Shown: positions 4,512 to 62,815 of the stretch, piece by piece
How positions within the stretch are numbered: the first letter of the stretch is position 1
Layout of the letters: each line of letters opens with the position of its first letter
Virus record (IMG/VR): IMGVR_UViG_3300037261_000110
Reading direction: 5' to 3' (one strand)
DNA: 64,000 nt
From: a virus
Taxonomy: Duplodnaviria; Heunggongvirae; Uroviricota; Caudoviricetes
Notes under the pieces: model-generated
Databases searched by the model: none
Told to the model about the DNA's origin: nothing
Seen by the model: only the letters and a program-made list of their open reading frames with translations
Translations under genes and position numbers: made by a program

Positions 4512-5183
4512 TCACTTGGAAACGGTTTCCTTCCCATCGAATTCAATCACTGTTCTTGGTTGGTGTCCCTGATCGAACACACCATACATCGCAATCAGGC
4601 TGGCTTCCGCCCTGCCGTCGTCCTTTTTACGCTTGAACTGCGCGGCTGCACTTGGAAAGAGCTTCGAGGCACGCGCACGCGACAAATCCTTGTCAGCTCC
4701 GCATCCCATGCGCGCCTTCCAGATTGAAGGACGAACTTTGACAACCCTTAAGCGAAGTGATGCAGCAACGCCAAGAATCGTCCCAAGGCTGGCGCCGAAG
4801 GTGAATCCGTTCACACCACCATCGTGGACCATTCCCCAAACATCCTCTATATAAAGGATATTGCTCGGATGCTTACGCAGCCAACTGACGACCGCGTACG
4901 CATCAACCTCGCGTCGATTGGCAGTAGCTCCGAACACGTGGACTGGCATATCCAGGATGGCTAGCTTGCCCGCATACTCGTCAATCGCGGCTAGAGCGCC
5001 GGAATTGCCTGGATCAACTCCAATCGTCCAGAACCCGCTCCCAAGCCCGGCAAAGTTCTTGTCATCGACGAACCTCGCCTTGCAATCAGCCAGCGTCTTA
5101 CCATCTCCGCCCTCTGGCTCCGCCAGATGGCTTCCCGCTACGCGGGCCGAAACCACGTCGTTCGCACGATCTTCAGTAAACAT
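4512..5183 (-). CDS. RuvC-like Holliday junction resolvase
   Basis: Motifs IGVDPGNSGALAAID and ILYIEDVWG, and a basic C-terminal region. Confidence 0.65.
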   Translation of the reverse strand: MFTEDRANDVVSARVAGSHLAEPEGGDGKTLADCKARFVDDKNFAGLGSGFWTIGVDPGNSGALAAIDEYAGKLAILDMPVHVFGATANRREVDAYAVVSWLRKHPSNILYIEDVWGMVHDGGVNGFTFGASLGTILGVAASLRLRVVKVRPSIWKARMGCGADKDLSRARASKLFPSAAAQFKRKKDDGRAEASLIAMYGVFDQGHQPRTVIEFDGKETVSK

Positions 5184-5667
5184 ACTTCGTACATGCCATA
5201 CAACAACGTAAAAGTAAAGTAAAAGCACACATAGGGTCATTTTGGTTTGGTTCCCCACACCCTTCCGTGCGGGGCGCGAAAAGCTAAAAGAGCAACGTTC
5301 AAAAAGTAGTGTTTTTTAGCAAAAGCTAAGCTTTCTGCGGATGTGTCATAAAATCCACAACTTTTCGACCTACCACTTTTGGCCCCAAAACCCTTTATTT
5401 CTTTAGATAAGATCAATCAAAAGAATAAAAGAATAGTGGGAACCAGGAACACCAAACCAGTCAGGGTAAAACGCTTCGAAAAAATTTCTGTGCCTGAGCT
5501 GGTACAGTGAGACACCGGCGCAGATATTTGTGCCGGGCATTTTCCCCGCGACTGGTTCCGTGTTCCTCATTTACACTACGGTTTTTGAGCTTTCGTTGTA
5601 ATTCCAAGCCTTTTCACAACAATTTAATTGTTGATATTGACTTAATTGACCGTTTGTGCTGTACAGC

Positions 5668-34656: not shown

Positions 34657-34956
34657 ATGGCGATGCGCTTTGTTGACCCGTCCGTCTGGAATGCGGTCAA
34701 AGTTAAGGAAATGACGAAGAAAGAGATTCGTGCTCTGATCAAAGACGCGAAGAGTCTTCAATTCTTTGTTCATCCTGGGTACTGCACCTTTACCGACGAG
34801 ACAGTCTTTCGCGTCGAAGTGAGCAAGGCTTGGGCGAGCGAGTTTGTCACTACTGTCCCGGTTGATGATCTTCCAGGCATTCAGGTGATCGATTACGAGG
34901 GTGAAAAACTAATGCGTTTCTGGCCGAAGGGAACGTTCAACGTCATCTCGGGATGA
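34657..34956 (+). CDS. Hypothetical protein
   Basis: 99-aa ORF. Confidence 0.45.
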   Translation: MAMRFVDPSVWNAVKVKEMTKKEIRALIKDAKSLQFFVHPGYCTFTDETVFRVEVSKAWASEFVTTVPVDDLPGIQVIDYEGEKLMRFWPKGTFNVISG

Positions 34957-35354
34957 ATAATCATCTTGAATATCAGCGAGCTTGGACAAAGAAAAATCTC
35001 GCTCGCGTACGTGCTCAGCAGCGAGCATGGTATCAAAGAAACATAGAGACAGTACGGAAGAAAGCAAAAGAGAAAAACGCTTTACATCCTGAGATAAAGC
35101 GTAACGAAAAACTTCTAACGAGATACGGTATCTCGGCAGAAGAGTGGCAAAAACTCTTCGAGACTCAAGGGTCGTGTTGTGCTATTTGCCGGACGCCCGA
35201 ACCCGGTTCTCAGGATTGGCATACTGATCACGATCATGCGACTAAAGTGGTTAGAGGTATCTTGTGCTTTAATTGCAATATCGGACTTGGAAAGTTCAAA
35301 GAGAGTTCCGATTTGCTATTAGAGGCGGCAGACTATTTGGACAGGTTCAGATGA
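34953..35354 (+). CDS. Endonuclease VII-family (His-Me finger) nuclease, copy 1
   Basis: CCAICRTPEP...DHDHATKVVRGILCFNCNIGLGKF matches the T4 gp49 Endo VII core. Confidence 0.7.
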   Translation: MNNHLEYQRAWTKKNLARVRAQQRAWYQRNIETVRKKAKEKNALHPEIKRNEKLLTRYGISAEEWQKLFETQGSCCAICRTPEPGSQDWHTDHDHATKVVRGILCFNCNIGLGKFKESSDLLLEAADYLDRFR

Positions 35355-36376: not shown

Positions 36377-36573
36377 CGCTGAATCTCTATGGCTCGTGCC
36401 CTACCTGCGGCGCTCAAGGCGAATATCGCGAGAGGCGCCCAAATGGCAACGATAAGTGCGTCAACGGGCACACCTACCCGTCGTCGAAAGCCATCGGGGC
36501 GCCAAAAAAGCCTAGCCAACCGAATCTTGGCAGGCTTGCTAAGTCTCCATGGTGGAAACGTCAACATACCTGA
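36373..36573 (+). CDS. Zn-ribbon small protein, possibly the N-terminal part of a frameshifted gene
   Basis: CPTCGAQGEY...CVNGH. Confidence 0.4.
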   Translation: MTLNLYGSCPTCGAQGEYRERRPNGNDKCVNGHTYPSSKAIGAPKKPSQPNLGRLAKSPWWKRQHT

Positions 36574-36952
36574 GCTGCGTTTGTCGTCGGGGTTCGCAAA
36601 TGAATCTCGAATTGATTTATGGTCGATAGACCCGTCACCGGCAACCGGCAATGTCGCGACGGCTTACGAAATAAAGATCAGCCGTGACGATTGGAAAAGG
36701 GACAATGCGATCAAGCAGCGCGGGGCTCGACTGTTTGCCGATCGCTTCTACTATGTGACGCCGCCGGGCTTGCTGAAGCCGGAAGAGATTCCGGATTGGG
36801 CAGGACTGATCGAAGTTGATCCAGACGAGAAAGACGCCTGGGATAATTTGGTTCGGTGCAAAACAATTGTCACCGCGCCAAAGTTGGACAAAGCACACCC
36901 GACTTGGGGTTTGGTCGTTTCCATGCTCCGTCGTGTGCCAATGGAAGTGTAA
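36443..36952 (+). CDS. Putative PD-(D/E)XK-type nuclease domain protein; possibly joined to 36373..36573 by a frameshift
   Basis: IDLWSID ... AYEIKISRDDWKRD. Confidence 0.4.
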   Translation: MATISASTGTPTRRRKPSGRQKSLANRILAGLLSLHGGNVNIPELRLSSGFANESRIDLWSIDPSPATGNVATAYEIKISRDDWKRDNAIKQRGARLFADRFYYVTPPGLLKPEEIPDWAGLIEVDPDEKDAWDNLVRCKTIVTAPKLDKAHPTWGLVVSMLRRVPMEV

Positions 36953-38244: not shown

Positions 38245-38317
38245 TTTACCTCCTCGCAGCTGTCGTCTTTGGCGTCATTGTTCTTTGCACTTACGTAGTT
38301 CTGAAAGGGTAACGATT

Positions 38318-39319
38318 ATGAGCTGGTACGTTTTTGATCTTGATGGCACGTTAGCCGACAACGCACATCGGCAAAATCTGCTTCCAGATAATTGGGATGC
38401 TTTCTTTGAGGCGTGCGATAAAGACACGCCGATTTGGCCTGTCCTCGATCTGATGACGAACCTATGGTCGGACGGACACCGTATCGAAATTTGGTCAGGT
38501 CGTGCCGCTGCGGTACGTGACAAGACCGTTCGTTGGTTCGAGGATCAGTGTGGCATCTTTCTCGACTTGTCCAAGATCGTGTTGCGCATGCGCATGGAGA
38601 GCGACTATCGTCCGGACGAAATCATAAAGGCTGAGTGGTTGGCGGAGTCACCTGCAAAACCAGATATCATTTTTGACGATCGCCAAAAAGTCGTTGACAT
38701 GTGGAGAAAATCTGGTGTCGTCTGCGCCCAGGTCGCGCCCGGCGATTATGACATGAAGATTCGTCCGTCGAGCAGTGTCGCGACCGGCGAGGATCACATC
38801 CTGGTCCTCATGATCGGACCTTCCGGAACCGGTAAGTCCAGCTGGATCAAGCATGGTATGGAGATTTGGGAAAAGAATGATCCCGACGACTATGATCCTA
38901 CCTGTGTGATTTCGACCGATTTCATCCGCGCAAATCTGACGAACGATTATAAGAATCAGAAGCGCAATGGGGATGTTTTCAAGGCGGTCGAAGCCTTGGT
39001 TCGAACGCGCATGAGCTGCGGACTGCGCACGATCGTGGACGCCACTCACCTGGACCCGGCATGGCGCAAAAAACTTGTCTCGCTTGTTCCGCCGGGCATG
39101 AAGGTGATGTATTGTGTTGTCAACGCAAGCCTCGCCGTCAAGCTCGCGCACGCAAACGGACGCGAACCAGATGTGATCATAAGCCAGCATCATACCTTCA
39201 ATCACCAACTTTCGGACATTCTCGCGGGCGATGGCTTGCCCAATGTGATCGTCCAGGCAGATATTCACAATGATGACGGCTCCTCAATCATTATCGATCC
39301 CTACGAGAATGATCAGTGA
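38318..39319 (+). CDS. pnk: Polynucleotide kinase/phosphatase with an N-terminal HAD phosphatase and a C-terminal P-loop kinase
   Basis: HAD motif VFDLDGTLADN and Walker A GPSGTGKSS. Confidence 0.75.
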   Translation: MSWYVFDLDGTLADNAHRQNLLPDNWDAFFEACDKDTPIWPVLDLMTNLWSDGHRIEIWSGRAAAVRDKTVRWFEDQCGIFLDLSKIVLRMRMESDYRPDEIIKAEWLAESPAKPDIIFDDRQKVVDMWRKSGVVCAQVAPGDYDMKIRPSSSVATGEDHILVLMIGPSGTGKSSWIKHGMEIWEKNDPDDYDPTCVISTDFIRANLTNDYKNQKRNGDVFKAVEALVRTRMSCGLRTIVDATHLDPAWRKKLVSLVPPGMKVMYCVVNASLAVKLAHANGREPDVIISQHHTFNHQLSDILAGDGLPNVIVQADIHNDDGSSIIIDPYENDQ

Positions 39320-39783
39320 CTGAAACAACCGTAAAGCGTCGTGAGTACATACAGAAATGGCGGCGCGAACATAAAGAGCATATACTAGAAGTCCAGCGAA
39401 GATGGCGTGAAAGTCCAGGAGTTCGCGAACGAATCCGTGCTTCAGGGCGAAGAAGTCATGAAAAGTATCGAGATGAAAGAAATAAACGTCAGCACGCTCG
39501 TCGACAGCATCCAGATTACAATCAGATGTTTGAACAACAAAATGGATTATGTGCTATTTGTAAGAAACCTGAAACAAGCATAGATAGTCGCTCTGGTAAG
39601 CCCAAACAGCTGGCTCTTGATCATGACCATATCACAGGAAAAATCCGTGGCTTGCTCTGTCAGAAGCATAATATAGGCTTAGGTTGTTTTGACGATGATC
39701 CTGTGCTTATGGAAGACGCCGCCAGCTACGTTCAAGAGCATCGTGATCTACAACGATTCGAGAGTATGCTAAATGTCACCTGA
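39316..39783 (+). CDS. Endonuclease VII-family nuclease, copy 2
   Basis: CAICKKPE...LDHDHITGKIRGLLCQKHNIGLGCF; AT-richer than neighbours. Confidence 0.7.
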   Translation: MTETTVKRREYIQKWRREHKEHILEVQRRWRESPGVRERIRASGRRSHEKYRDERNKRQHARRQHPDYNQMFEQQNGLCAICKKPETSIDSRSGKPKQLALDHDHITGKIRGLLCQKHNIGLGCFDDDPVLMEDAASYVQEHRDLQRFESMLNVT

Positions 39784-40057
39784 TTCACTAGATTTTCAAA
39801 TGGGCATCTCAATTGGCAGACTAATTGAGCGATGCGAGCGCAAGCAAAGATTCGATATGGTCGTCGAAAAGGTGATCGTCGAGCATGCCCGCAAGGTGTG
39901 TCTCGAACACAAGTTCATCCTAATGGAAACCCATTACGCTGACACGCGTTCGCGTATTTGGGGTGCCCCTTCACATCTCCCGAAAGAGCCGACGCCTCAG
40001 CCTCCCGGCACGCCAATGCTAAAGCGTATGATGGCTGGTATGGGACGCGCCGCATAA
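39773..40057 (+). CDS. Hypothetical protein
   Basis: 94-aa ORF. Confidence 0.4.
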   Translation: MSPDSLDFQMGISIGRLIERCERKQRFDMVVEKVIVEHARKVCLEHKFILMETHYADTRSRIWGAPSHLPKEPTPQPPGTPMLKRMMAGMGRAA

Positions 40058-43665: not shown

Positions 43666-44256
43666 TCATCCCAAATTCCTCACTAACTTCGTAACACCTT
43701 TTGACGGTTCAATGTAGTGTTGTGTCGTCTCAATGCTCGCGTGTCCCGCGAGTTCTTGAACGTCTCGAAGCGAGCACTTGTACATGTTCACCGACCGCGC
43801 CAGAGCCGTGATCATAGAACGGCGTCCAGAGTGGCTGGAAGCCCCCTGGAAGCCAGCGCTGCGGTAGAGCTGCCAGAGATAGACCGCGATGTGGTTAGGC
43901 GTCATGGCGCCCCCCTTGACGGCGCGGATGACCCTGGTCTCCAAATAGGTAATTTTCTTACCTTGACTCAGTTCGCGGAGTGCCTGATAAAGTTCAGCAT
44001 GGATCGGAATTTGCCGTCGTTTGTCACCCTTTCCGATCACATCAAAATAGTCGGTATGGAGGCGTCCCTGTGCGTCGCACAAATTGGACCAGTCCAAATC
44101 TGCAACCTCGGATGCTCGCAAGCCGGCCCTATATGTCAGGAGAATCATCACTTTATCCCGCAGGGGATGACGCTCGTTCGCGGCAAATTTTAGAAGCTCT
44201 CGAAGTTGAGGCTCCGTCAGGATTTGCGCCTGTTTCCGCCGACGCCGTAAACGCAC
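43666..44256 (-). CDS. Minimal tyrosine recombinase (catalytic domain only, 196 aa)
   Basis: Catalytic residues R (YRAGLRASE), K (GKGDKRR), HxxR (HSGRR) and H...Y (GHASIETTQHY). Confidence 0.75.
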   Translation of the reverse strand: MRLRRRRKQAQILTEPQLRELLKFAANERHPLRDKVMILLTYRAGLRASEVADLDWSNLCDAQGRLHTDYFDVIGKGDKRRQIPIHAELYQALRELSQGKKITYLETRVIRAVKGGAMTPNHIAVYLWQLYRSAGFQGASSHSGRRSMITALARSVNMYKCSLRDVQELAGHASIETTQHYIEPSKGVTKLVRNLG

Positions 44257-48413: not shown

Positions 48414-50678
48414 ATGAAAATAGAGACCGCCGAGAGAGTAGCCGAGTTTGCTGGTTTTCTTGAAGAGAAAAGCTTCACGATAGCAGCAAACGGTAAAGCT
48501 TTTCGGGTCCTCATTGATAAACTTTACTCAAACGTTCATCAAGCTATTGTACGCGAGCTGATGACGAATGCTTGGGATGCGCATGTTTCGGCGGCAAATC
48601 TAAAACCTTTCGAAATTCACGTGCCGACAGCGTTTGAGCCCTTCTTTTCTATTCGTGACTTCGGCTGTGCAATGACTCACTCAGAAGTCATGAACGTCTA
48701 CTCGACGATATTCGAGTCAACCAAGGATGCTCGTGACGATCAGGTCGGCGCCTGGGGCCTTGGCTCAAAAACACCTTTCGCCTACACTGACACTTTTGGC
48801 GTGCAAGTCTGGCTAGATGACCGCCATAGGGTGTATAATGTCTTCATAGATGCGACCGGTGTCCCAAAAATCGCCCTGGCGCTCGACGAAGAGAATGACG
48901 GTGCCGCGAACGGCGTTGAGGTATCCTTTCCAGTCGGTGTCAAAGATGCCGGTCTTTTTCGAACCGCGCTCGAAGTGGTTAGCATTGGCTTCGAAGTCAA
49001 GCCAAAATTTTCTGGTTCGCTCAATGTTCTGGAATTAGAGAAGCGTCGTCAAGGTGCTGGCTGGTTCACGTTCGTCTATTCCAGTGGACCAACATGGTTG
49101 AAAAAGCCGGTTGCTCGGGTCGGCTGCGTCCTCTATCCGATCAAGCTGGACGTGGTGTGTGATCTCATAAGAGACAAAGCGACGAAGCCAGAGTGCTGGC
49201 AGCTTTTGTCCAGCGTGCATGGTTTTCCGGGCACGCCAATGATCCTCGATTTCCCAATTAGCTCGATCGAAGTCACAGCCAATCGTGAAGACTTATACTA
49301 TTCGGAACGAACTGTCAAGTCTATTGTTGATAGATTCGAGACAATCGTTCAGGAAATGAAAGCTGAGTTTTTAGCTAATATCAAGAAAGGCAAGACTCTC
49401 TATGAAGTGAATATGGAAGTCCTCGAAGTCTGCGAGATGTTCGCCGACGTTGCCTCTGGCGTCTCTAGCTATCTCCGTGATTTTGCTCGGCAACAGAGCT
49501 TCAAAGGACGAAAGCTTCTTCACAAAATCGTTTTTCGACATAGATACAAAACGGTTGAGGAAAAGAACGCTGCCGGTGAGGCAGTCATTTATCGAGTTCC
49601 GACTCGTTACAATAGCATTCAATTCGTCTACTATCTAGGCTCGAAATTCATTCGTCAACCAGGACTGCAATTCTGTGATTCTGAGGAAATGTCTTGGACT
49701 CCGCGTGTTACCGACTTCTTCGTTGAGCTGCCGGGCGAAAAGGGTAAGCGCGTGCCGTACGCTGCTCGCCGCATTCGTCACGAGCGCAACGAAGCCGGCA
49801 CGACCGTGCGCCACGATCTTATGTGGATCAAGACACCCTCACTCTCGGACCCTCACTTCGTAAAAATGTGGATCGGGCTCGGGCGCCCGCCTTATAAACT
49901 GGTCAACGATCTGGTGAGACCGCCGGGCATTCCGACCGAGCGCTATATAACCCCGATGCGCATTTATAATTCGAATGCAGATACGTGGGAAAGGTATGAC
50001 GATTTCGACGTTGAGAATGACGCCGGGTTTTATGTGATGCTCAACTGCGGGCTTCCGGAGCATATAAAGAGCGTGAAGCTCTGCGATCTGATCGGATTTC
50101 TGGAATCAAAGCGCGCGATCCACAATGCCCGTCATATCATTGGCATCCCAAAGAGCCGCAAGTCAGTTCTCTCAAAATCCGATCAATGGATTGACATGGT
50201 TCCCGTCCTTAAAGCAGCCTACCGCAAAGCGCTCAACGTGAAGCAGGCAGCGGTCAGTTTCAGTGTTAAAGAGATCACAATCGACAAAGGGGATCAAGGC
50301 ACGTTAGAAAGATTGAACCGCAAGCTTGGTAGGTTTGATCCGGCGTCGCCGTTCGTTCAAGCGATTAAAGCCTATGATCGGTTGGGAGCGATTGAGGCGA
50401 CAGCTGCCGAATTTAAGAGTGCCTGGAATCATCGATGGGTGCTTGATTATGAGGAGCGTGCGAAGCTCGACGAAGAATACAACGCGCTCGCCAAAAGTGA
50501 CCCGGCGCTGGTTTCTGAGATTGGCTCTATCAAGTCTGCCATCGAAGGTGTTTTTCAAGCCTATCCTTTACTGCAAAAAGTGCCATATCCCGATCAAGAT
50601 GCTTTGAAAGCACTCGACGACTATATTGTAGCGATGGACTGTTTTAGAGGGGCGCTTGCTAGTGGCTTACAAAAATAA
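48414..50678 (+). CDS. rIIA: rIIA-like protein (GHKL ATPase-domain protein)
   Basis: FRVLIDKLYSNVHQAIVRELMTNAWDAH matches the T4 rIIA N-terminus (VVRELITNMIDAH); also GAWGLGSKTPF. Confidence 0.8.
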   Translation: MKIETAERVAEFAGFLEEKSFTIAANGKAFRVLIDKLYSNVHQAIVRELMTNAWDAHVSAANLKPFEIHVPTAFEPFFSIRDFGCAMTHSEVMNVYSTIFESTKDARDDQVGAWGLGSKTPFAYTDTFGVQVWLDDRHRVYNVFIDATGVPKIALALDEENDGAANGVEVSFPVGVKDAGLFRTALEVVSIGFEVKPKFSGSLNVLELEKRRQGAGWFTFVYSSGPTWLKKPVARVGCVLYPIKLDVVCDLIRDKATKPECWQLLSSVHGFPGTPMILDFPISSIEVTANREDLYYSERTVKSIVDRFETIVQEMKAEFLANIKKGKTLYEVNMEVLEVCEMFADVASGVSSYLRDFARQQSFKGRKLLHKIVFRHRYKTVEEKNAAGEAVIYRVPTRYNSIQFVYYLGSKFIRQPGLQFCDSEEMSWTPRVTDFFVELPGEKGKRVPYAARRIRHERNEAGTTVRHDLMWIKTPSLSDPHFVKMWIGLGRPPYKLVNDLVRPPGIPTERYITPMRIYNSNADTWERYDDFDVENDAGFYVMLNCGLPEHIKSVKLCDLIGFLESKRAIHNARHIIGIPKSRKSVLSKSDQWIDMVPVLKAAYRKALNVKQAAVSFSVKEITIDKGDQGTLERLNRKLGRFDPASPFVQAIKAYDRLGAIEATAAEFKSAWNHRWVLDYEERAKLDEEYNALAKSDPALVSEIGSIKSAIEGVFQAYPLLQKVPYPDQDALKALDDYIVAMDCFRGALASGLQK

Positions 50679-51147
50679 AGATGATGACAAAAAATGGAGA
50701 GAAGCTAACGAGGATCATCTAAAGCAATATAAAAGAGACTACTACAGACGGAAGTATGGAAAAAATCGTGAAAAAATGTGTCCTAAACCTAAAAGACGCA
50801 CAGATCACTTGAAGAGATACGGTATCACTATAAATGAGTGGGAGAAGATGTTTGAAAAACAGGGTAAAATATGTGCTCTGTGTGGATCAGATGTCCCTGC
50901 CAAACACTCAAATCGATGGAATACGGATCATGATCACGATACAGGGATAATTAGAGGAATTATTTGTTGCAGTTGTAACAATGGATTAGGTCTATTCAAG
51001 GATGATCCAGTGCTACTGCGCAAGGCCGCCAACTATATAGAACTAAGCAAACCTCTTAATTTTTTACTTGACAATCGGAAAAAACCCGAGCATTATGCCG
51101 AAACTCAAACCATAGAGACGGACAGCAATGAGCACGATCCCGCATAG
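50656..51147 (+). CDS. Endonuclease VII-family nuclease, copy 3, inserted between rIIA and rIIB
   Basis: CALCGSD...TDHDHDTGIIRGIICCSCNNGLGLF; AT-rich codon usage. Confidence 0.75.
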   Translation: MLVAYKNKDDDKKWREANEDHLKQYKRDYYRRKYGKNREKMCPKPKRRTDHLKRYGITINEWEKMFEKQGKICALCGSDVPAKHSNRWNTDHDHDTGIIRGIICCSCNNGLGLFKDDPVLLRKAANYIELSKPLNFLLDNRKKPEHYAETQTIETDSNEHDPA

Positions 51148-52156
51148 CATTACCGCCAATTCGATCTCGGTTCTGATCGATTATCGGATGCGCGTCATTC
51201 CGAAGTCGTCTGTGAACTTCGATGCAATTCGAGCCGAACTCGGCAAGGGCGAGAAGGCGGATATCGGCAAGCTCAAGTCGCTGGTTGACATTCCATCGTT
51301 CATCGCTCGGGTCACGGCTGGACGTATTCGCGTCTCCGACGACGAAGTGTATTTCAAGTCGGAAAAAGTCAACAGCTACGCGGCTCAGCGTCTTTTGGAG
51401 CACCTGAGAGACGGTGATTCGATCGAACCGCTTGCCAAGCTGCTCGACAAGCTGATGGACAATCCGAACCCGGCACTCCGCAACGATCTGTGGCTGTGGA
51501 TCGAACAAGCCAATCTGCCGATTGCCGGTGACGGTGATATCTTGGCCTTCAAAAAGGTCGATCCGGAATATAAGTCGTTCCACAAGAACACCGATGGCAC
51601 GTACCACGTTCATCGTGTCGGAACACGCGTTCACATGCCACGTGAGCATTGTGACCCGAACCGTCATTCGGTTTGTTCGACCGGGCTGCACTTCTGTTCA
51701 TATGGCTATCTGCACACGTATGAAGGAACCAGCGGGCACGTCGTTATCGTGAAAATCAACCCACGTGACATTACCGCGATTCCGTCTGACGCCTCCGATC
51801 AAAAGGGACGCTGCTGTCTCTATGAAGTGGTCCAGGAAATCGACCAGGAGGAAGCTAAGCAGTTTTTCAGGGGTAACGTCGTCTCGCACGTCGGCACTTA
51901 TGACGAGCCAGAGCCCGACGAACCGCCGGTGGATTGGGACGATCATGAAGGCGGCTACGAGATCGGCGAGGGAGCTGCCGAGCCAGAGGCTGTGGTCAAT
52001 GCCAGTGATGACGGATTCACGATCGTCATCGGCAGCAAGCGCGTCAGCCGCCAGCACCTGAATGATACCGTCGCCAGTCTCGGACAGCGCGGCGCCGCCA
52101 AGAAGCTCGGCATACCACGCACGTCGCTTCAGGACGCACTCAAGCGCATGAAGTGA
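51128..52156 (+). CDS. rIIB: rIIB-like protein with a C-terminal HTH
   Basis: CSTGLHFCSYGY ... VVIVKINPRDITAIPSD ... CCLYEVVQE matches the T4 rIIB core. Confidence 0.75.
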   Translation: MSTIPHSITANSISVLIDYRMRVIPKSSVNFDAIRAELGKGEKADIGKLKSLVDIPSFIARVTAGRIRVSDDEVYFKSEKVNSYAAQRLLEHLRDGDSIEPLAKLLDKLMDNPNPALRNDLWLWIEQANLPIAGDGDILAFKKVDPEYKSFHKNTDGTYHVHRVGTRVHMPREHCDPNRHSVCSTGLHFCSYGYLHTYEGTSGHVVIVKINPRDITAIPSDASDQKGRCCLYEVVQEIDQEEAKQFFRGNVVSHVGTYDEPEPDEPPVDWDDHEGGYEIGEGAAEPEAVVNASDDGFTIVIGSKRVSRQHLNDTVASLGQRGAAKKLGIPRTSLQDALKRMK

Positions 52157-53166: not shown

Positions 53167-53663
53167 TGACAAACCCGGATGACACTCTTCGAAATCGTAT
53201 TGCTGCTCTTCATGACGCACTCCATTTCGATGGAATAAGAGATAGAGCGAGAAGAATATACGAGAACCGTGTCTGGTTTAACTTAAACGAGTTACGAAAA
53301 GAAGCTGCGCTTTCTTTTGCAGAGAGCCGTGGCTGGAAATTATCAAAAGCCTCTTTCTCGTTCAGACAATTACGTGAAGGAAAATTCAGGCCAAATAGTG
53401 ATGATTGGCGCTCAGACTTGCATTACAACGAACCAGGAGCGTCGGCTCCCGATCATTGTGAATATTTTCGCAAGCCAAAGTGCGAGGGCGGTAGGTTCAT
53501 TATGCCGGCAGCTATCGTCAGCCATCCCTATGGACCACCTGACGCTAATGTCCGTTTTTTCGAAGGAAATGGTTTCATCGCCGAACTACTTCCCTGGTCA
53601 TGGTACTATCCACAAGGAACGTGTGCTATTGTGGTCACGATGAATGAAGATCGAGCTGCTTGA
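53163..53663 (+). CDS. Hypothetical protein
   Basis: 166-aa ORF. Confidence 0.5.
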   Translation: MMTNPDDTLRNRIAALHDALHFDGIRDRARRIYENRVWFNLNELRKEAALSFAESRGWKLSKASFSFRQLREGKFRPNSDDWRSDLHYNEPGASAPDHCEYFRKPKCEGGRFIMPAAIVSHPYGPPDANVRFFEGNGFIAELLPWSWYYPQGTCAIVVTMNEDRAA

Positions 53664-55447
53664 CGGCGGCATTTACGCCGCGACGATCGCCTTCCAGCAA
53701 CGACTGCGCTTTCGAGCTGACGGCTGGCTTTGGAATCCAGACCTAAAAAAGTGGACGACCAAGGATAGGACGAAAGTCATCCCTTGGCTTCCATTCTGCG
53801 TCGGGCGCGCGCGTGAAGTTCTCGACGATCAGATAGAGCACGAGCGCGTCAGGATGGCGCCTAGTTTCGCTGCGGACGCCGATATCGACATACCGGTGCC
53901 CGTAGCCTTTCATATACGGGACAGAAAACCGTTTGAGTATCATCCTTTTCAAAAAGCGGGAATCAAATTCATTCACGAGCACAAGGATACCCTGCTCGCC
54001 GATCCTCCTGGGCTCGGTAAAACCATTCAGGCGATCGGCGCCTCAAACTTGGACGCATCAATCCGTCGCGTGCTTATTATCTGCCCGGCTTTCATGAAAA
54101 TCCATTGGGAGCGTACCTGGACGGATTGGGACGTTAAACACTTATCGGTCGGCATCGCCCGAACGCACTCATACCAGAAGGATCGAGTTATTCATCGGGA
54201 GCATGTTTGGCCGAATAGCGACGTTGTGATTATCAACCCGGAGCTGTTGGAGGCGTTTGACGAACATACCAAGGCGCTCGAATGGGACTTGATGGTTATC
54301 GATGAATGGCACCTTGGATTCCCAACCGGCAAATCAAAGCGCTTCAAGTCAGTCTTCGGCGGACGTTACACCAAACCCAAAAAGAAAGAAAAAGCCGAAG
54401 CCGGTGACGATGGACTTCCGTCCGATACGGGCGAAGAAGCGCCTGTTTCTAACCGGGACTCCCCTCACGGCGAGGCCGATTCAGCTGTGGTCGCTGTGTG
54501 AGAAGGTCGATCCGCGCGGGCTCGGACGCAGCTGGAAGAGTTTCATCTATCGCTACTGCGGCGCCCATCATGACGGGTTCGGCATTGACACTCGCGGCGC
54601 GACCAATCTGGATGAACTACAGTACAAACTGAGAACATCCTTCATGATTCGCCGTGACAAAAAGGAAGTCATGGGAGAGCTGCCGCCGAAGTCGCGTCAA
54701 GTTATCGTGATGCCGGACGATGGCATTCAGAAAAAGGTCGAAAACGAGCTGTCGGCGGTTCGCGGGCTGGTTTCGCTCTACGAGAATTTAGTCGGGCTAG
54801 CGCCAGCAGAGTCGATCGAACAAACCGATAATCGCTTCTGGCAGGCAGTGGCAACGGTTCATGGGCGCTTCATCGACGCCAGCTTGCAGCTCTCGCAGGA
54901 TTACAGTCTCGCCTTCGAGGAGCTGTCGAAGGCGCGCAAGGAGCTAGCTTTAGCTAAAGTTCCGCTCGCAATCCAGTACATCAACAACCTAATGGAATCG
55001 GGCGAAAAGGTCATCGTTTTCTGCCACCATACGGTCGTCGCTGAGGCGTTAAAATCACACTATCCTCAGTGTGCTTATATCACCGGCAAAGTCCCTACGC
55101 AGAAGCGCCAGGGGCAGGTAGACCGCTTCCAGGACGATCCGAGCTGCAACCCAATGATCGGCAACATCGACGCTGCCGGCGTTGGATTCACGATGACAGC
55201 GGCGTCCCACGTCGTCTTCGTTGAACTGGTGTTCAACCCGTCAAATATGGAGCAAGCCGAAGACCGTGCATGGCGCGACGGGCAAGAGAACGCTGTGCTT
55301 GTTCATTTTCTCGTGGTGGATCACTCTTTCGATGCTCGAAATATCACGATTCTAGAAGAAAAAGCTGAGGTTTTAGAACAAGTTCTGGATTCCAACAAGT
55401 ATCGTAGCTTAAGCTTTCTTGCGGATATGCTAGCCGAGAATCGTTAG
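53644..55447 (+). pseudogene. SNF2-family helicase split into two frames (53644..54501 and 54302..55447) by a 1-nt shift inside an A-rich tract at 54372..54395
   Basis: ORF1 carries motifs I (ADPPGLGKT) and II (MVIDEWH). ORF2 carries motif III (LFLTGTP) and motif VI (QAEDRAWRDGQ). Confidence 0.75.
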
Positions 55448-58403: not shown

Positions 58404-58874
58404 ATGATCGCCCTTCAATTCTCAACTCATACAGGACTAGCATCACTAGCGATCCGCAGCTTCACTAGAGGCTGGGTGACTCATGTTGACTGTGTGCTGC
58501 CGGATGGACGCCTATATGGCGCGCGTATGCATGGAGGCGTCCAGGCACGTTTGCCGGACTATACCAAATTCAAGCAAACAAAAATTCTCTATCTTCAGAC
58601 GACGCGCGAACAAGAGAACGCCTTTTATAGCTTCCTGGATGCACAATTAGGTAAGCCGTACGATTGGACGGCGATATTCGCCTTTGTCGTCAATCGTGAT
58701 TGGCGTGAGGATGATAGCTGGTTTTGCTCCGAGTTGATCATAGCTGCCTTAGAGTTCGCCAAGATTATTCGCAAGCTTTCAACGTCCTCGAACAGAGTAA
58801 CACCTGAAATGGGTATGTTCATGATTTCGGCGATCTGTATCGATCCGCCCGGTTTTGTGGAAGCAGTCTTTTGA
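58404..58874 (+). CDS. Hypothetical protein
   Basis: 156 aa; ATG directly after the upstream stop. Confidence 0.5.
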   Translation: MIALQFSTHTGLASLAIRSFTRGWVTHVDCVLPDGRLYGARMHGGVQARLPDYTKFKQTKILYLQTTREQENAFYSFLDAQLGKPYDWTAIFAFVVNRDWREDDSWFCSELIIAALEFAKIIRKLSTSSNRVTPEMGMFMISAICIDPPGFVEAVF

Positions 58875-61039
58875 TCAACACCAACTTCGCCTACGATACG
58901 CTTGTCTATGATTTGGAATCGGACGGTTTACTAGACCGGCTGACGCGTATCCATAGCCTTATCATTCGTCATTATGAGACCGGCGATGTTTATGTGTTCC
59001 GCAGAAACAAGACGGAAGATACGATTATAAACGGCGTGCGCATGCTTGAGCGCGCGAAAGTCCGTGTCGGACATAATGTCATTGCTTTCGACGAAGAAGC
59101 CATCAAGCTAGTCTATCCGGATTATAACCCGCAAGGAAAATTGCGCGACACCCTGCCTATGGTCCGCATGCTGTTTGCCGATCAGAAGGATAAGGATTTT
59201 CGTCTATGGGAGCGCAACCAGCTCCCTGGTCAGTTGATCGGTGCCAATACCCTAAAAGCATGGGGCTATCGCGTTGGGCTTAACAAAGGTGACTATGCCG
59301 ATGATAAAGCCGCCGAGGCTAAGGAAAAAGGCATCACTGATCCTGACGAGATAATTCAATACGTTTGGGGCTCCTGGAATCAGGAGATGGAGGATTACTG
59401 TGAGCTTGACGTTGATGTGAATGTTGCATTGTGGGCGAAGTGTTTGCGCGCGCAATGGCCCGAGCCATCGATTGTATTTCAGCATCAGGCGCACAGCTTG
59501 TGGTCGGACGCAGAGAAGAACGGTATATATTTTAGGAAAGAGGAAGCGGAAAAGCTCGCCGAGGAAATCAAGGTCGAAGCAGAGAAGTTAGGTAAGATCG
59601 CGATCGAGCATTATGGGGTTTGGTTCGCGCCTGGGAAAAAGTACATCGTAGCGCCACTATGGGACGATCCCGGTGGCGTCAACAAGAAGAAAAAATATCC
59701 CGAGCCGCGTAAGAAATGGGGCGAGGATTTGTCTCGCTCGATTTGGGGCGAGATATGCATTCCTAAAAAGTCGCTGAAATTCAAGGACCCGAACCGTGGC
59801 GATCGGTTCGAAGGCGCAGCTTTCTGTCCGATTGTCTATAAGGAGTTCAAACCGACTTCACGCCAGATGATCATTGACCGTTTTACGGTGATCTATAACT
59901 GGAAGCCGTTCGAAGACGATTTCACCGAGAAGGGTAATCCGGAAATCAATGACGAAGTGCTCCGCAACCTGATTGGGAAGATTCCCATGGCTGAGGAGCT
60001 GGCGGAAGTCTTCTATCTTAACAAACGACTAGGACAGATCGCGACCGGTAAAGAGGCGTGGCTAAAACACGTCGATGCGGAGGGAAAAATTCACCCACGC
60101 TTCAACGTCGGCGCAACGTTGTCTGGTCGTGTCGCGCATTCTAATCCCAACATCGGTCAAGTCCCGCGCGTCGTTAAAGTCGACGTGAAAAACAAGGATG
60201 GCTCACTTAACAAAAAGGTTTTAGGACCGGACGGTAAACCAATTGCCGCCTGCTTTGATGCGAATGGTGAGTTCAAAAAGAAGGTTGTCTTAAAGGGTAG
60301 AAAAGGCAAGCACGGCTGGGATTGTCGCCATCTGTTTTATGTGCCTCCGGAATGGGGCATCATGGTTGGTTGCGATCTAGCCGGTATCGAGCTGCGCTGT
60401 CTCGCCAATCTCGCGCAGCCGTTCGACGACGGCGTGCTGATCGATATCATCCTGAATGGTGACATTCACGCCATCAACCAAGCTGCCGCCGGCCTCGATA
60501 ATCGCGATCAAGCCAAGACACTGATCTACGCGCTGATCTATGGTGGCGGAGATCGTAAGCTCGGAGCCATCGTCCAGCCGCTCGCCGACGAAGAGACGCA
60601 GCGCAAGCTTGGCGCTGAGATGCGCGCTCGACTGATGCTCAACGTGCCGTCGCTGCGCTTCGCCGTTGAGTGGGTGAAGAAACATGCCTCAAAAGGGATT
60701 TTACCAGGACTCGACGGTCGTCGTCTGTTCGTCCGCTCGCCGCACTCGGCGCTCAATTTGAAATTGCAAAGCGACGCGACGCTGATTGCGCAGAAGTGGG
60801 GTTTGCTGTGCGAAGAAAGCTTGCTCGATATGGGCTTGGAGCATTCCTGGAACGGTGACTTTGTATTTCTTATGTGGGTCCATGATGAAATACAGATTGC
60901 TCTTCGTCATGGTGTCGATGTTGCAGAAGTTGAGACTCGCTTGACCGACGCCGCAGCTAAAGCAGGGCTGTATTTCGGGTACGTTTGCCCGGTCGCGGCT
61001 GAAGCAAAGCATGGAGCTGATTGGGCGATCACGCACTAG
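58871..61039 (+). CDS. Family A DNA polymerase with an N-terminal 3'-5' exonuclease domain (T7-like)
   Basis: Exo I (VYDLESDG), Exo II (GHNVIAFDEEAI), motif A (DLAGIELRCLANLA), motif B (RDQAKTLIYALIYGGG), motif C (VHDEIQI). Confidence 0.85.
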   Translation: MINTNFAYDTLVYDLESDGLLDRLTRIHSLIIRHYETGDVYVFRRNKTEDTIINGVRMLERAKVRVGHNVIAFDEEAIKLVYPDYNPQGKLRDTLPMVRMLFADQKDKDFRLWERNQLPGQLIGANTLKAWGYRVGLNKGDYADDKAAEAKEKGITDPDEIIQYVWGSWNQEMEDYCELDVDVNVALWAKCLRAQWPEPSIVFQHQAHSLWSDAEKNGIYFRKEEAEKLAEEIKVEAEKLGKIAIEHYGVWFAPGKKYIVAPLWDDPGGVNKKKKYPEPRKKWGEDLSRSIWGEICIPKKSLKFKDPNRGDRFEGAAFCPIVYKEFKPTSRQMIIDRFTVIYNWKPFEDDFTEKGNPEINDEVLRNLIGKIPMAEELAEVFYLNKRLGQIATGKEAWLKHVDAEGKIHPRFNVGATLSGRVAHSNPNIGQVPRVVKVDVKNKDGSLNKKVLGPDGKPIAACFDANGEFKKKVVLKGRKGKHGWDCRHLFYVPPEWGIMVGCDLAGIELRCLANLAQPFDDGVLIDIILNGDIHAINQAAAGLDNRDQAKTLIYALIYGGGDRKLGAIVQPLADEETQRKLGAEMRARLMLNVPSLRFAVEWVKKHASKGILPGLDGRRLFVRSPHSALNLKLQSDATLIAQKWGLLCEESLLDMGLEHSWNGDFVFLMWVHDEIQIALRHGVDVAEVETRLTDAAAKAGLYFGYVCPVAAEAKHGADWAITH

Positions 61040-61045
61040 CATGTA

Positions 61046-61717
61046 GTGCTTGACAGATTAACCACGATGTGCTACGACAGACAAATAATGCCGATCACGA
61101 TTTACGTCATTGAGAACGGTGTCAATGACAAGAAATATGTAGGGCAGACTTGCGGACCTGTTGATAACAGGTTCCGACAGCATTGCACTAAAAATGGCTG
61201 CACAGCCATCTATCGAGCTATCACAAAGCACGGTAGAGAACAATTTTCGATCCGTACGCTTTTCGTCTGTCCAGACGATCAAGCGTATGCAGACGAGATG
61301 GAGTGTTGCGCGATCAAGGTATTCGGAACGACGGTCCCGAATGGTTACAATCTTCAAGAAGGTGGATCGAATGGAAAGCACTCCATAAAGACAAAGGAGA
61401 AAATGTCAGCTACCGCAATGGGACATGAGGTTTCAATTGAAACGAGAGCAAAATTAGCATCTGCTAATATTGGAAATAAACATGCTCTTGGATTCAAGCC
61501 ATCAACTGAAACTAGAGCTAAAATGGCGGCAGCTCAGAGAGGTAATAAAAATCAACTTGGACTAAAACGATCGCCAGAGACTTTGATAAAGATGGCAGCA
61601 GCTCAACGAGACAAGAAGTGTTCAGCTGCCACAGCCGCTAAAATATCAGCATCACTGGTTAACTACCACAAAAACAAGAAAAAGAAGACAACAAACGATG
61701 CGCGTACTTACATTTGA
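61046..61717 (+). CDS. GIY-YIG homing endonuclease with NUMOD3 repeats
   Basis: IYVIENGVNDKKYVGQT and three repeats of SxETRAKMAAAQRGNK. Confidence 0.8.
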   Translation: MLDRLTTMCYDRQIMPITIYVIENGVNDKKYVGQTCGPVDNRFRQHCTKNGCTAIYRAITKHGREQFSIRTLFVCPDDQAYADEMECCAIKVFGTTVPNGYNLQEGGSNGKHSIKTKEKMSATAMGHEVSIETRAKLASANIGNKHALGFKPSTETRAKMAAAQRGNKNQLGLKRSPETLIKMAAAQRDKKCSAATAAKISASLVNYHKNKKKKTTNDARTYI

Positions 61718-62318
61718 CTGTGAGACTACAGGGTTGGAAGTTAACACTAATAACCTTTTAGCAGAAACTAACGATTATCCCTTATCCATCGCCGCGTTTC
61801 TGTATGATATGGATAAGATTGGTGAGACCTTCGAGCTAATGAAGGTTGAGCCAGATAGCATGCTTGCGTGCTATTTCAATTATGGGATCGACAACAAACC
61901 CGATGCACAGCGCATCAATGGAATAACGAGAGAGAAGCTAGATACGTTTGGCCTGTCGCCGCATGAAATCCTGCCTCTCTTCGCTGAATTCCTGGACAAG
62001 GCCGATCGCATAGTTGGACACAACGTCAAGTATGACGCCGACATAATGCGCATCGCTTTTGCGCGCGCCGGATGGGAAGGAGACCCGTTCGAAGGACGTG
62101 ATCTATACTGCACGTGCCGCGAGGCACGCACAGTTTGCAAAATACCAAAGTATCGCATGGATCATGCTGAAGATTGGAAGCTCCCGAAACTGATCGAGGC
62201 TTACAAGTTTTTCTTTGGTGATGGTTTCAATGGCGCGCACGGCGCCGTCAATGACACGAAAGCAGCGTTTGACGTGTATCTCGCGCTGCAAGGCAAGAAA
62301 GCAAAGGTTCAAGGTTAG
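61698..62318 (+). CDS. DEDDh 3'-5' exonuclease (DnaQ/epsilon-like)
   Basis: Exo I (FDCETTGL), Exo II (GHNVKYDADIM), Exo III (HGAVNDTKAAFDVY). Confidence 0.8.
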   Translation: MRVLTFDCETTGLEVNTNNLLAETNDYPLSIAAFLYDMDKIGETFELMKVEPDSMLACYFNYGIDNKPDAQRINGITREKLDTFGLSPHEILPLFAEFLDKADRIVGHNVKYDADIMRIAFARAGWEGDPFEGRDLYCTCREARTVCKIPKYRMDHAEDWKLPKLIEAYKFFFGDGFNGAHGAVNDTKAAFDVYLALQGKKAKVQG

Positions 62319-62320
62319 TG

Positions 62321-62815
62321 ATGCCGATTACAGTTTACATGATCGAGAATACCGTCAACGATAAGAAGTACATAGGGCAAACCTGTGATACTATAAAGAA
62401 GAGATTTGCCGATCATTGTAAGCCAAGTCAAAATGCTGTCATTGCTGATGCTGTGCGTAAATATGGTAGGGATAGTTTTTCGATCTGTGCGCTCTTTGTT
62501 TGTCCAGATGACCATGACTACGCCAATCAAATGGAGCGTCGTGCGATTGAAATTTACGGAACGTTAGCACCAAATGGCTACAATCTCATGGATGGCGGTT
62601 CATTAAACGGAAGACATTCCGAGGAAACTATCTTGAAAATGAAGGAGGCTAGAAAGACAAATCGGCCTAATTATAGACATTCCGATAAAACCAAGCAGAA
62701 AATGTCGGAGACCAGAAAAGGTAAGCCTAATGGCTTGCTAGGGTACAAGCATAGAGAAGATTCTAAGCAAAAAATGTCAGAGTCTCAGAAGAGAAGACAT
62801 CAGAATGTCGCTTGA
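62321..62815 (+). CDS. GIY-YIG homing endonuclease with NUMOD3 repeats, copy 2
   Basis: VYMIENTVNDKKYIGQT and HSEETILKMKEARK / HSDKTKQKMSETRKGK. Confidence 0.8.
   Translation: MPITVYMIENTVNDKKYIGQTCDTIKKRFADHCKPSQNAVIADAVRKYGRDSFSICALFVCPDDHDYANQMERRAIEIYGTLAPNGYNLMDGGSLNGRHSEETILKMKEARKTNRPNYRHSDKTKQKMSETRKGKPNGLLGYKHREDSKQKMSESQKRRHQNVA

Follow-up and report, generated by a model that had tools for sequence, protein, structure and literature searches.

The window analyzed here, a 64,000-nt stretch of DNA from an environmental phage of ~153 kb, contains three small open reading frames (ORFs), which we call E7a, E7b, and E7c, that match the endonuclease VII (Endo VII) family (Table 1). Near-identical contigs of this phage have been assembled repeatedly from several metagenomes. 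An initial annotation had placed three Endo VII-family ORFs at these positions, and all are exact ORFs that match the Pfam family PF02945 (Endonuclease_7) with E values of 1e-17 to 1e-22: 80 bits for E7a (E 1.3e-22), 64 bits for E7b (E 1.2e-17), and 77 bits for E7c (E 1.2e-21), against a gathering score of 23.6 bits. They also match the PHROG "endonuclease VII" families 2914 and 2633, and the family match is not a chance pattern. A six-frame translation of the window contains no further copy, whether searched with a profile of the three sequences or with one built from 82 homologues. For E7c, an alternative GTG start at 50662, lying 9 nt after AGAGGGG, has the better Shine-Dalgarno spacing and is the one chosen by public gene calls.

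Table 1. Positions of the Endo VII-family genes and of other features of the window discussed in the text
Feature	Position	Strand	Description
Putative terminase large-subunit ORF	976-3879	-	
Holliday junction resolvase	4512-5258	-	MOC1/RuvC-like; PDB MOC1 chains, E 2e-19
E7a	34953-35354	+	133 aa, ATG start; predicted Endo VII-motif (DHHRN/F-CphI-like) endonuclease gene
PHROG 5429 "DNA repair protein"	36389-36952	+	187 aa
PNK	38285-39319		
Weaker sigma-70-like site	39264-39291		Just upstream of E7b
E7b	39316-39783	+	155 aa, GTG start; Endo VII-family member
94-aa ORF	39773-40057		Conserved; precedes HslV-like gene
Tyrosine recombinase/XerC-like gene	43666-44256	-	196 aa
rIIA	48414-50678		PHROG 612, E 2e-95
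E7c	50656-51147	+	163 aa from TTG (161-163 aa); Endo VII-family member
Sigma-70-like site, TTGACA-17-CATTAT	51068-51096	+	Within E7c, near its 3' end; rIIB starts 32 nt downstream
rIIB	51128-52156		E 2e-61
SNF2-family helicase	~53644-55447	+	Two reading frames
DNA polymerase A	58871-61039		
GIY-YIG + NUMOD3 gene	61046 (or 61088)-61717	+	Homing-endonuclease-like; GC 0.44
RNase_T-type exonuclease gene	61698-62318		
GIY-YIG + NUMOD3 gene	62318-62815	+	Homing-endonuclease-like; GC 0.42

The three genes are tightly packed against their neighbors, with overlaps that range from 4 to 23 nt. E7a lies between hypothetical genes of 99 and 86 aa, with an ATGA overlap on both sides. The start of E7b sits in the GTGA that ends PNK, and its last 11 nt overlap the conserved 94-aa ORF. 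E7c overlaps the last 17 to 23 nt of rIIA and the first 20 nt of rIIB. The initial description of these sites as intergenic slots is essentially right: E7c is between rIIA and rIIB, and E7b is between PNK and the 94-aa ORF that stands before the HslV-like gene.

The genes also differ from their surroundings in composition. Their GC contents are 0.440 (E7a), 0.447 (E7b), and 0.392 (E7c) versus 0.516 for the window, and their GC3 values are 0.418, 0.340, and 0.366, respectively, versus 0.53 to 0.67 for the immediate neighbors. Among 132 crudely called ORFs of the window (GC3 mean, 0.561; standard deviation, 0.081), E7b ranks lowest, E7c second lowest, and E7a 10th. The AT-richer codon usage noted initially is thus confirmed, at a GC3 of 0.34 to 0.42 against a mean of 0.56.

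A shared core of C-x2-C, DHDH, and RG-LC-x-CN-x-LG had likewise been described, and most of it stands. All three proteins contain C-x2-C, DHDH, and R-G-(I/L)(L/I)-C-x2-C-N-x-G-L-G with a single exception, the second C-x2-C of E7b. There the zinc knuckle reads C-Q-K-H (C-x2-H), a form found in 1 of the 82 aligned family members, and the histidine can presumably act as a competent zinc ligand. Residues D92, H93, H95, R101, and N109 (E7a numbering) and three cysteines are invariant in the 82 homologues, and the residues numbered D40, H41, H43, R54, and N62 in T4 are all present in E7a, E7b, and E7c.

Proteins with this motif have been grouped as the DHHRN family, with an endonuclease clade separated from a resolvase clade (Fang et al. 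2018, Mob DNA, PMC6083498). In the former the motif is C-terminal, and the members include intron-encoded enzymes and Hpy99I; in the latter the motif is N-terminal, and the members include gp49. F-CphI of cyanophage S-PM2, described in the same work, is a free-standing homing endonuclease with a C-terminal Endo VII motif. The rule that a C-terminal motif denotes a homing endonuclease is itself a prediction for most members. We aligned the three proteins with F-CphI, taken from the S-PM2 record, and with T4 gp49, for which the sequence used agrees with the PDB alignment over residues 7 to 86. This comparison, proposed in the initial annotation, favors the homing endonuclease in every case: E7a scores 71 bits with F-CphI (38% identity, E 1e-21) and 46 bits with gp49, E7b scores 67 bits (37%, E 1e-19) and 34 bits, and E7c scores 63 bits (35%, E 4e-18) and 33 bits. 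The F-CphI alignments cover ~100 residues and reach the very C terminus, whereas the alignable part of gp49 is confined to residues 7 to 86, and its residues 87 to 157 have no counterpart in E7a, E7b, or E7c. In our three proteins, 72 to 78 aa precede the first CxxC, compared with ~22 in gp49, and 58 to 91 aa follow it. The motif is C-terminal in all 82 aligned homologues, with 44 to 136 aa before the first CxxC and 53 to 91 aa after it.

E7a, E7b, and E7c resemble F-CphI in size (133 to 163 aa versus 142 aa), in the helix "YGIT..E...M(F/Y)E.Q.G.CAIC" that precedes the C-terminal Endo VII motif, in keeping D, H, H, R, and N, and in standing free between two conserved phage genes. They differ from it in that F-CphI adjoins psbA, a gene that contains an intron, and its target is the site where that intron is inserted, whereas E7a, E7b, and E7c have no intron; they also occur as three copies per genome, beside other flanking genes, in another phage group. 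With T4 gp49 they share the Pfam domain, the zinc knuckles, and the DHDH...N active site. In gp49, however, the motif is N-terminal and is followed by ~90 aa of domain-swapped dimerization helices that are absent here, and gp49 belongs to the core genes and keeps a fixed locus, unlike these accessory genes. The framing of the three as paralogues of gp49 is not supported by their architecture, as the motif is C-terminal and the C-terminal dimerization region of gp49 is missing.

An AlphaFold2 model of E7a based on the 82-homologue alignment has a mean pLDDT of 96.9. It consists of four N-terminal helices of 13 to 14 residues, a fifth helix, a beta-beta-alpha core, and a C-terminal helix. Its sole significant fold match in the PDB is Hpy99I (PDB 3FC3; Foldseek E 5e-4, 31% identity over ~81 columns); by sequence, the best PDB match is Endo VII, with Hpy99I second. 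Hpy99I is a beta-beta-alpha-Me type II restriction endonuclease, dimeric and cutting duplex DNA in a sequence-specific manner, but its N-terminal domains are unrelated to ours and no methyltransferase adjoins E7a, E7b, or E7c. The neighbors are hypothetical genes, PNK, rIIA, and rIIB, and we rejected an Hpy99I-type restriction enzyme because none of them contains a methylase domain.

The phage had been labeled T4-like, which does not hold: it is distantly related to siphophages of alphaproteobacteria. Its replicative DNA polymerase belongs to family A, and its rIIA is closest, at 30 to 41% identity, to those of the Ruegeria phages RpAliso and DSS3_MAL1, the Rhodobacter phage RcXuper, the Sphingobium phage Lacusarx, and the Microcystis phage Mwe-JY26. 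Because the phage is not T4-like, the expectation that it should encode one Endo VII resolvase does not apply, and the whole 149-kb genome of RpAliso contains no Endo VII-family member. A megablast search with 20 kb of the window found no match among GenBank phages, and a scan of IMG/VR for rIIA peptide patterns found no relatives. Searches with rIIB and PNK identified a sister lineage, the 56.7-kb Logan contig SRR21686420_9822 (L019/L022), which has the same gene order and whose flanking proteins are 63 to 69% identical to those of the window.

As the initial annotation stated, the window carries a separate RuvC-like resolvase. The ORF is 41.5% identical to an RpAliso protein annotated as "RuvC-like resolvase"; a Pfam/NCBIfam bulk scan gave no RuvC match for it, and it was found through the RpAliso annotation and its match to the chloroplast resolvase MOC1 in the PDB. 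This protein is likely the phage's real resolvase. It has a counterpart in RpAliso and the Endo VII-family genes do not, so the housekeeping resolvase role is already filled. These results bear on the possibility that one or more of E7a, E7b, and E7c is a structure-specific resolvase or debranching enzyme of the gp49 type, acting in recombination and in the clearing of branches before packaging. The catalytic core common to T4 Endo VII would fit such an enzyme, as would the location of some close homologues in recombination modules (for example, L025). We nevertheless judge it highly unlikely, given the C-terminal motif without the dimerization region, the absence of the genes from the sister at these loci and from RpAliso altogether, and the presence of the conserved MOC1/RuvC-like resolvase. 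In addition, a single housekeeping role needs no three divergent, low-GC copies, and the best fold match is to Hpy99I rather than to Endo VII.

We compared relatives for the presence or absence of the genes at the same loci, as had been suggested, and found all three slots empty in the sister. Where the window has E7a between the 99-aa and 86-aa genes (slot a), the stop of the sister's 99-aa gene overlaps the next start (TAATG). At the site of E7b (slot b), the sister's PNK runs straight into a homologue of the 94-aa ORF (80% identical), and at the site of E7c (slot c), its rIIA and rIIB share an ATGA overlap. More distant relatives likewise have slots b and c empty. In L023, a relative at ~50% identity, PNK, the 94-aa homologue, and the HslV-like gene are adjacent; in RpAliso, PNK directly precedes a proteasome-beta/HslV-like gene, and rIIA and rIIB overlap by 4 nt (ATGA). 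The contigs L020 and L021 have a gap of 45 nt between rIIA and rIIB, with no intervening gene.

The sister contig has a family member of its own at another site. This uncalled ORF of ~160 aa (L022 14591-15070, minus strand; equivalent to L019 2350-2829) matches the family profile with an E value of 6e-35, has a GC content of 0.39 versus 0.52 for the genome, and carries DHSH in place of DHDH. It lies between a DUF5906 primase gene and a tyrosine-recombinase (integrase) gene. The same junction is occupied by a 55-aa ORF in the window and by an IMPDH-domain gene in L023, and it looks like an insertion hot spot.

E7a, E7b, and E7c are therefore accessory, junction-precise, placed differently between sisters, and foreign in composition. 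Conservation at fixed loci with uniform codon usage would have spoken against mobility; instead, the slots are empty in relatives where they can be examined, and the composition is deviant. On both counts the genes would behave like free-standing homing endonuclease genes, as the initial annotation had proposed. Since the databases hold only one closely related lineage, absence from the sister could reflect loss instead of gain; the rIIB and PNK searches returned no relative between 67% and 100% identity, so gain and loss cannot be polarized further. Three independent precise losses, together with a gain elsewhere and the low GC content, would be a less economical account.

Pairwise identity among E7a, E7b, and E7c is only 30 to 40%, whereas outside homologues are 43 to 57% identical to them, that is, closer than they are to one another. 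The term "paralogues" used initially is thus not supported in the sense of recent paralogues. The outside homologues occur in unrelated settings: one in a lambdoid nin/recombination region, where it follows YqaJ/ERF/NinB (L025), and others directly after the major capsid gene (L027-L029). By best-hit logic, the simplest reading would be three independent acquisitions, not duplication within the genome.

A search of this phage population for insertion-free alleles found none, as E7a, E7b, and E7c are present in every near-identical contig. In almost all of these metagenome contigs, which number more than 20 and come from several samples, the genes are complete and do not differ in sequence. One scaffold, L016 (~1388; sample SAMN07125002), lacks 74 nt inside E7c (window 50770-50843), which causes a frameshift, and no run of N marks the site. 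The scaffold is full of gaps and comes from a single sample of low coverage; the deletion could be a degenerate allele or a misassembly, and we do not trust it. Other indels in L009 and L016 were rejected as variants, being mostly 10-N scaffold gaps. This deletion and the atypical C-x2-H knuckle of E7b are what one might expect if the genes were inactive, decaying remnants of mobile endonuclease genes. Such decay is most improbable in view of the filled catalytic and zinc-ligand positions, the histidine counting as competent, and of ORFs that are complete and unchanged in almost every contig, the one departure coming from a scaffold riddled with gaps.

The intactness of the genes could instead mean that they are accessory nucleases kept for the benefit of the phage without homing, serving in exclusion or anti-defense by cutting competitor phage or host DNA, or that they are domesticated former homing endonucleases. 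The ORFs are intact, translationally coupled, and invariant across the more than 20 contigs, the tight start/stop coupling to their neighbors also fits long-resident or domesticated genes, and Hpy99I is an example of this fold at work in a sequence-specific restriction enzyme. We consider a benefit of this kind unlikely to be the explanation, as no methylase or immunity gene lies next to them and mobility is the best fit to their foreign composition and to a distribution that is scattered and precise to the junction. It also overlaps with homing, since homing endonucleases cause marker exclusion as well.

A search of the whole window against Rfam gave no match and hence no group I intron. Each flanking gene is a complete gene of its own, and an intron-encoded status was rejected; because no Rfam introns are present, we regard E7a, E7b, and E7c as free-standing. 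We also rejected a role as packaging-associated HNH proteins, as none of the three lies beside the putative terminase large-subunit ORF.

Taken together, these observations make it probable that E7a, E7b, and E7c were each acquired independently and are free-standing homing endonuclease genes of the F-CphI/DHHRN family, with a zinc-stabilized beta-beta-alpha-Me core carrying the Endo VII motif. In the mechanism that we propose, the variable, basic, all-helical N-terminal region would recognize the DNA site. Cleavage would fall to a compact Endo VII domain at the C terminus, which carries the D, H, H, R, and N residues as well as four zinc ligands. The active form would probably be a dimer that cuts both strands. 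We suggest dimerization of the single-domain proteins, as for Endo VII and Hpy99I, because several homologues of 240 to 280 aa (P0244, P0246, P0247, P0255, and P0272) consist of two complete Endo VII domains fused in tandem, forming pseudodimers within a single chain. During coinfection with a relative that does not carry the gene, the empty allele would be cut near the junction of the flanking genes, and repair by recombination with the occupied genome would then carry the endonuclease gene and some flanking sequence into the empty slot. For all three proteins, we infer nuclease activity, sequence specificity, dimerization, target sites, and homing.

The four N-terminal helices of E7a, each 13 to 14 residues long, recur with a period of ~15 aa and share an aromatic-x3-Asn signature. 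Across homologues, the number of such helical units varies from 0 to 7, and some members have an N-terminal C-x2-C zinc ribbon. We tentatively raise the idea, doubtful as it is, that the N-terminal region forms an array of DNA-recognition modules peculiar to this family of endonucleases. If true, the number and sequence of the repeats would determine which target is cut, and this would account for the spread of a single compact core to many junctions, of which the window has three and the sister one more. As a weaker addition to this idea, the sigma-70-like site in the 3' end of E7c may restore or keep the transcription of rIIB, judging from a consensus match at 10 of 12 positions; sites of this kind number 24 region-wide, against 14.7 +/- 3.8 expected. 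A weaker site of the same type is located upstream of E7b. The promoter and terminator scan as a whole gave consensus-level hints only.

The window also contains two GIY-YIG/NUMOD3 genes of the seg type, both low in GC, which bracket the RNase_T-type exonuclease gene downstream of the DNA polymerase A gene and whose presence counts in favor of the homing reading. In RpAliso, the polymerase and exonuclease genes are adjacent without these two genes, and in L020 and L021, polA is flanked by NUMOD1 and HNH_3 genes instead.

Several other features of the window were recorded in passing. The SNF2-family helicase gene is spread over two reading frames, with a switch between ~54372 and ~54422; homology to the helicases of L020 and RpAliso follows frame 1 to ~54372 and frame 2 from ~54422. 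The switch falls in an A-rich tract, CCCAAAAAGAAAGAAAAAGCC, that is identical in all metagenome contigs, and it could represent a split gene, a programmed frameshift, or a pseudogene. The 187-aa protein assigned to PHROG 5429 is 51% identical to the RpAliso "endonuclease" RPALISO_90, and its E-x-K-type motif, YEIKISRDDWKRD, suggests a PD-(D/E)XK nuclease. Lastly, the short tyrosine recombinase/XerC-like gene lies in an apparently lytic-type replication module and is conserved at a comparable place in the window, the sister, L020/L021, L023, RpAliso, and Mwe-JY26.

The three genes had been called unusual, which overstates the case, as Endo VII-motif homing endonucleases are already published (F-CphI and the DHHRN family; PMC6083498). 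Free-standing Endo VII-like genes have also been reported in actinobacteriophages (bioRxiv 10.1101/2025.01.02.630785). A further parallel is found in the T4-type seg and mob genes (PMC2988022), which are likewise small, wedged between conserved genes, sporadic in occurrence, deviant in composition, and present several times per genome; they differ from E7a, E7b, and E7c in catalytic family (GIY-YIG for seg, HNH for mob) and in phage lineage. Genes of this kind are thus already known as members of the DHHRN family and are fairly ordinary in phages, and the present ones do not change the understanding of such elements.

For annotation, the pipeline label "recombination endonuclease VII" is likely wrong for these three genes, which are here accessory and probably selfish. 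They add a natural case to a family with very few characterized members, essentially F-CphI. The three occupied junctions and three matching empty ones, plus the fourth site in the sister, mean that the sequences of the empty sites are now in hand. Together with the two GIY-YIG genes, the Endo VII-type trio points to heavy traffic of homing endonucleases among large phages of a group that has been little studied.
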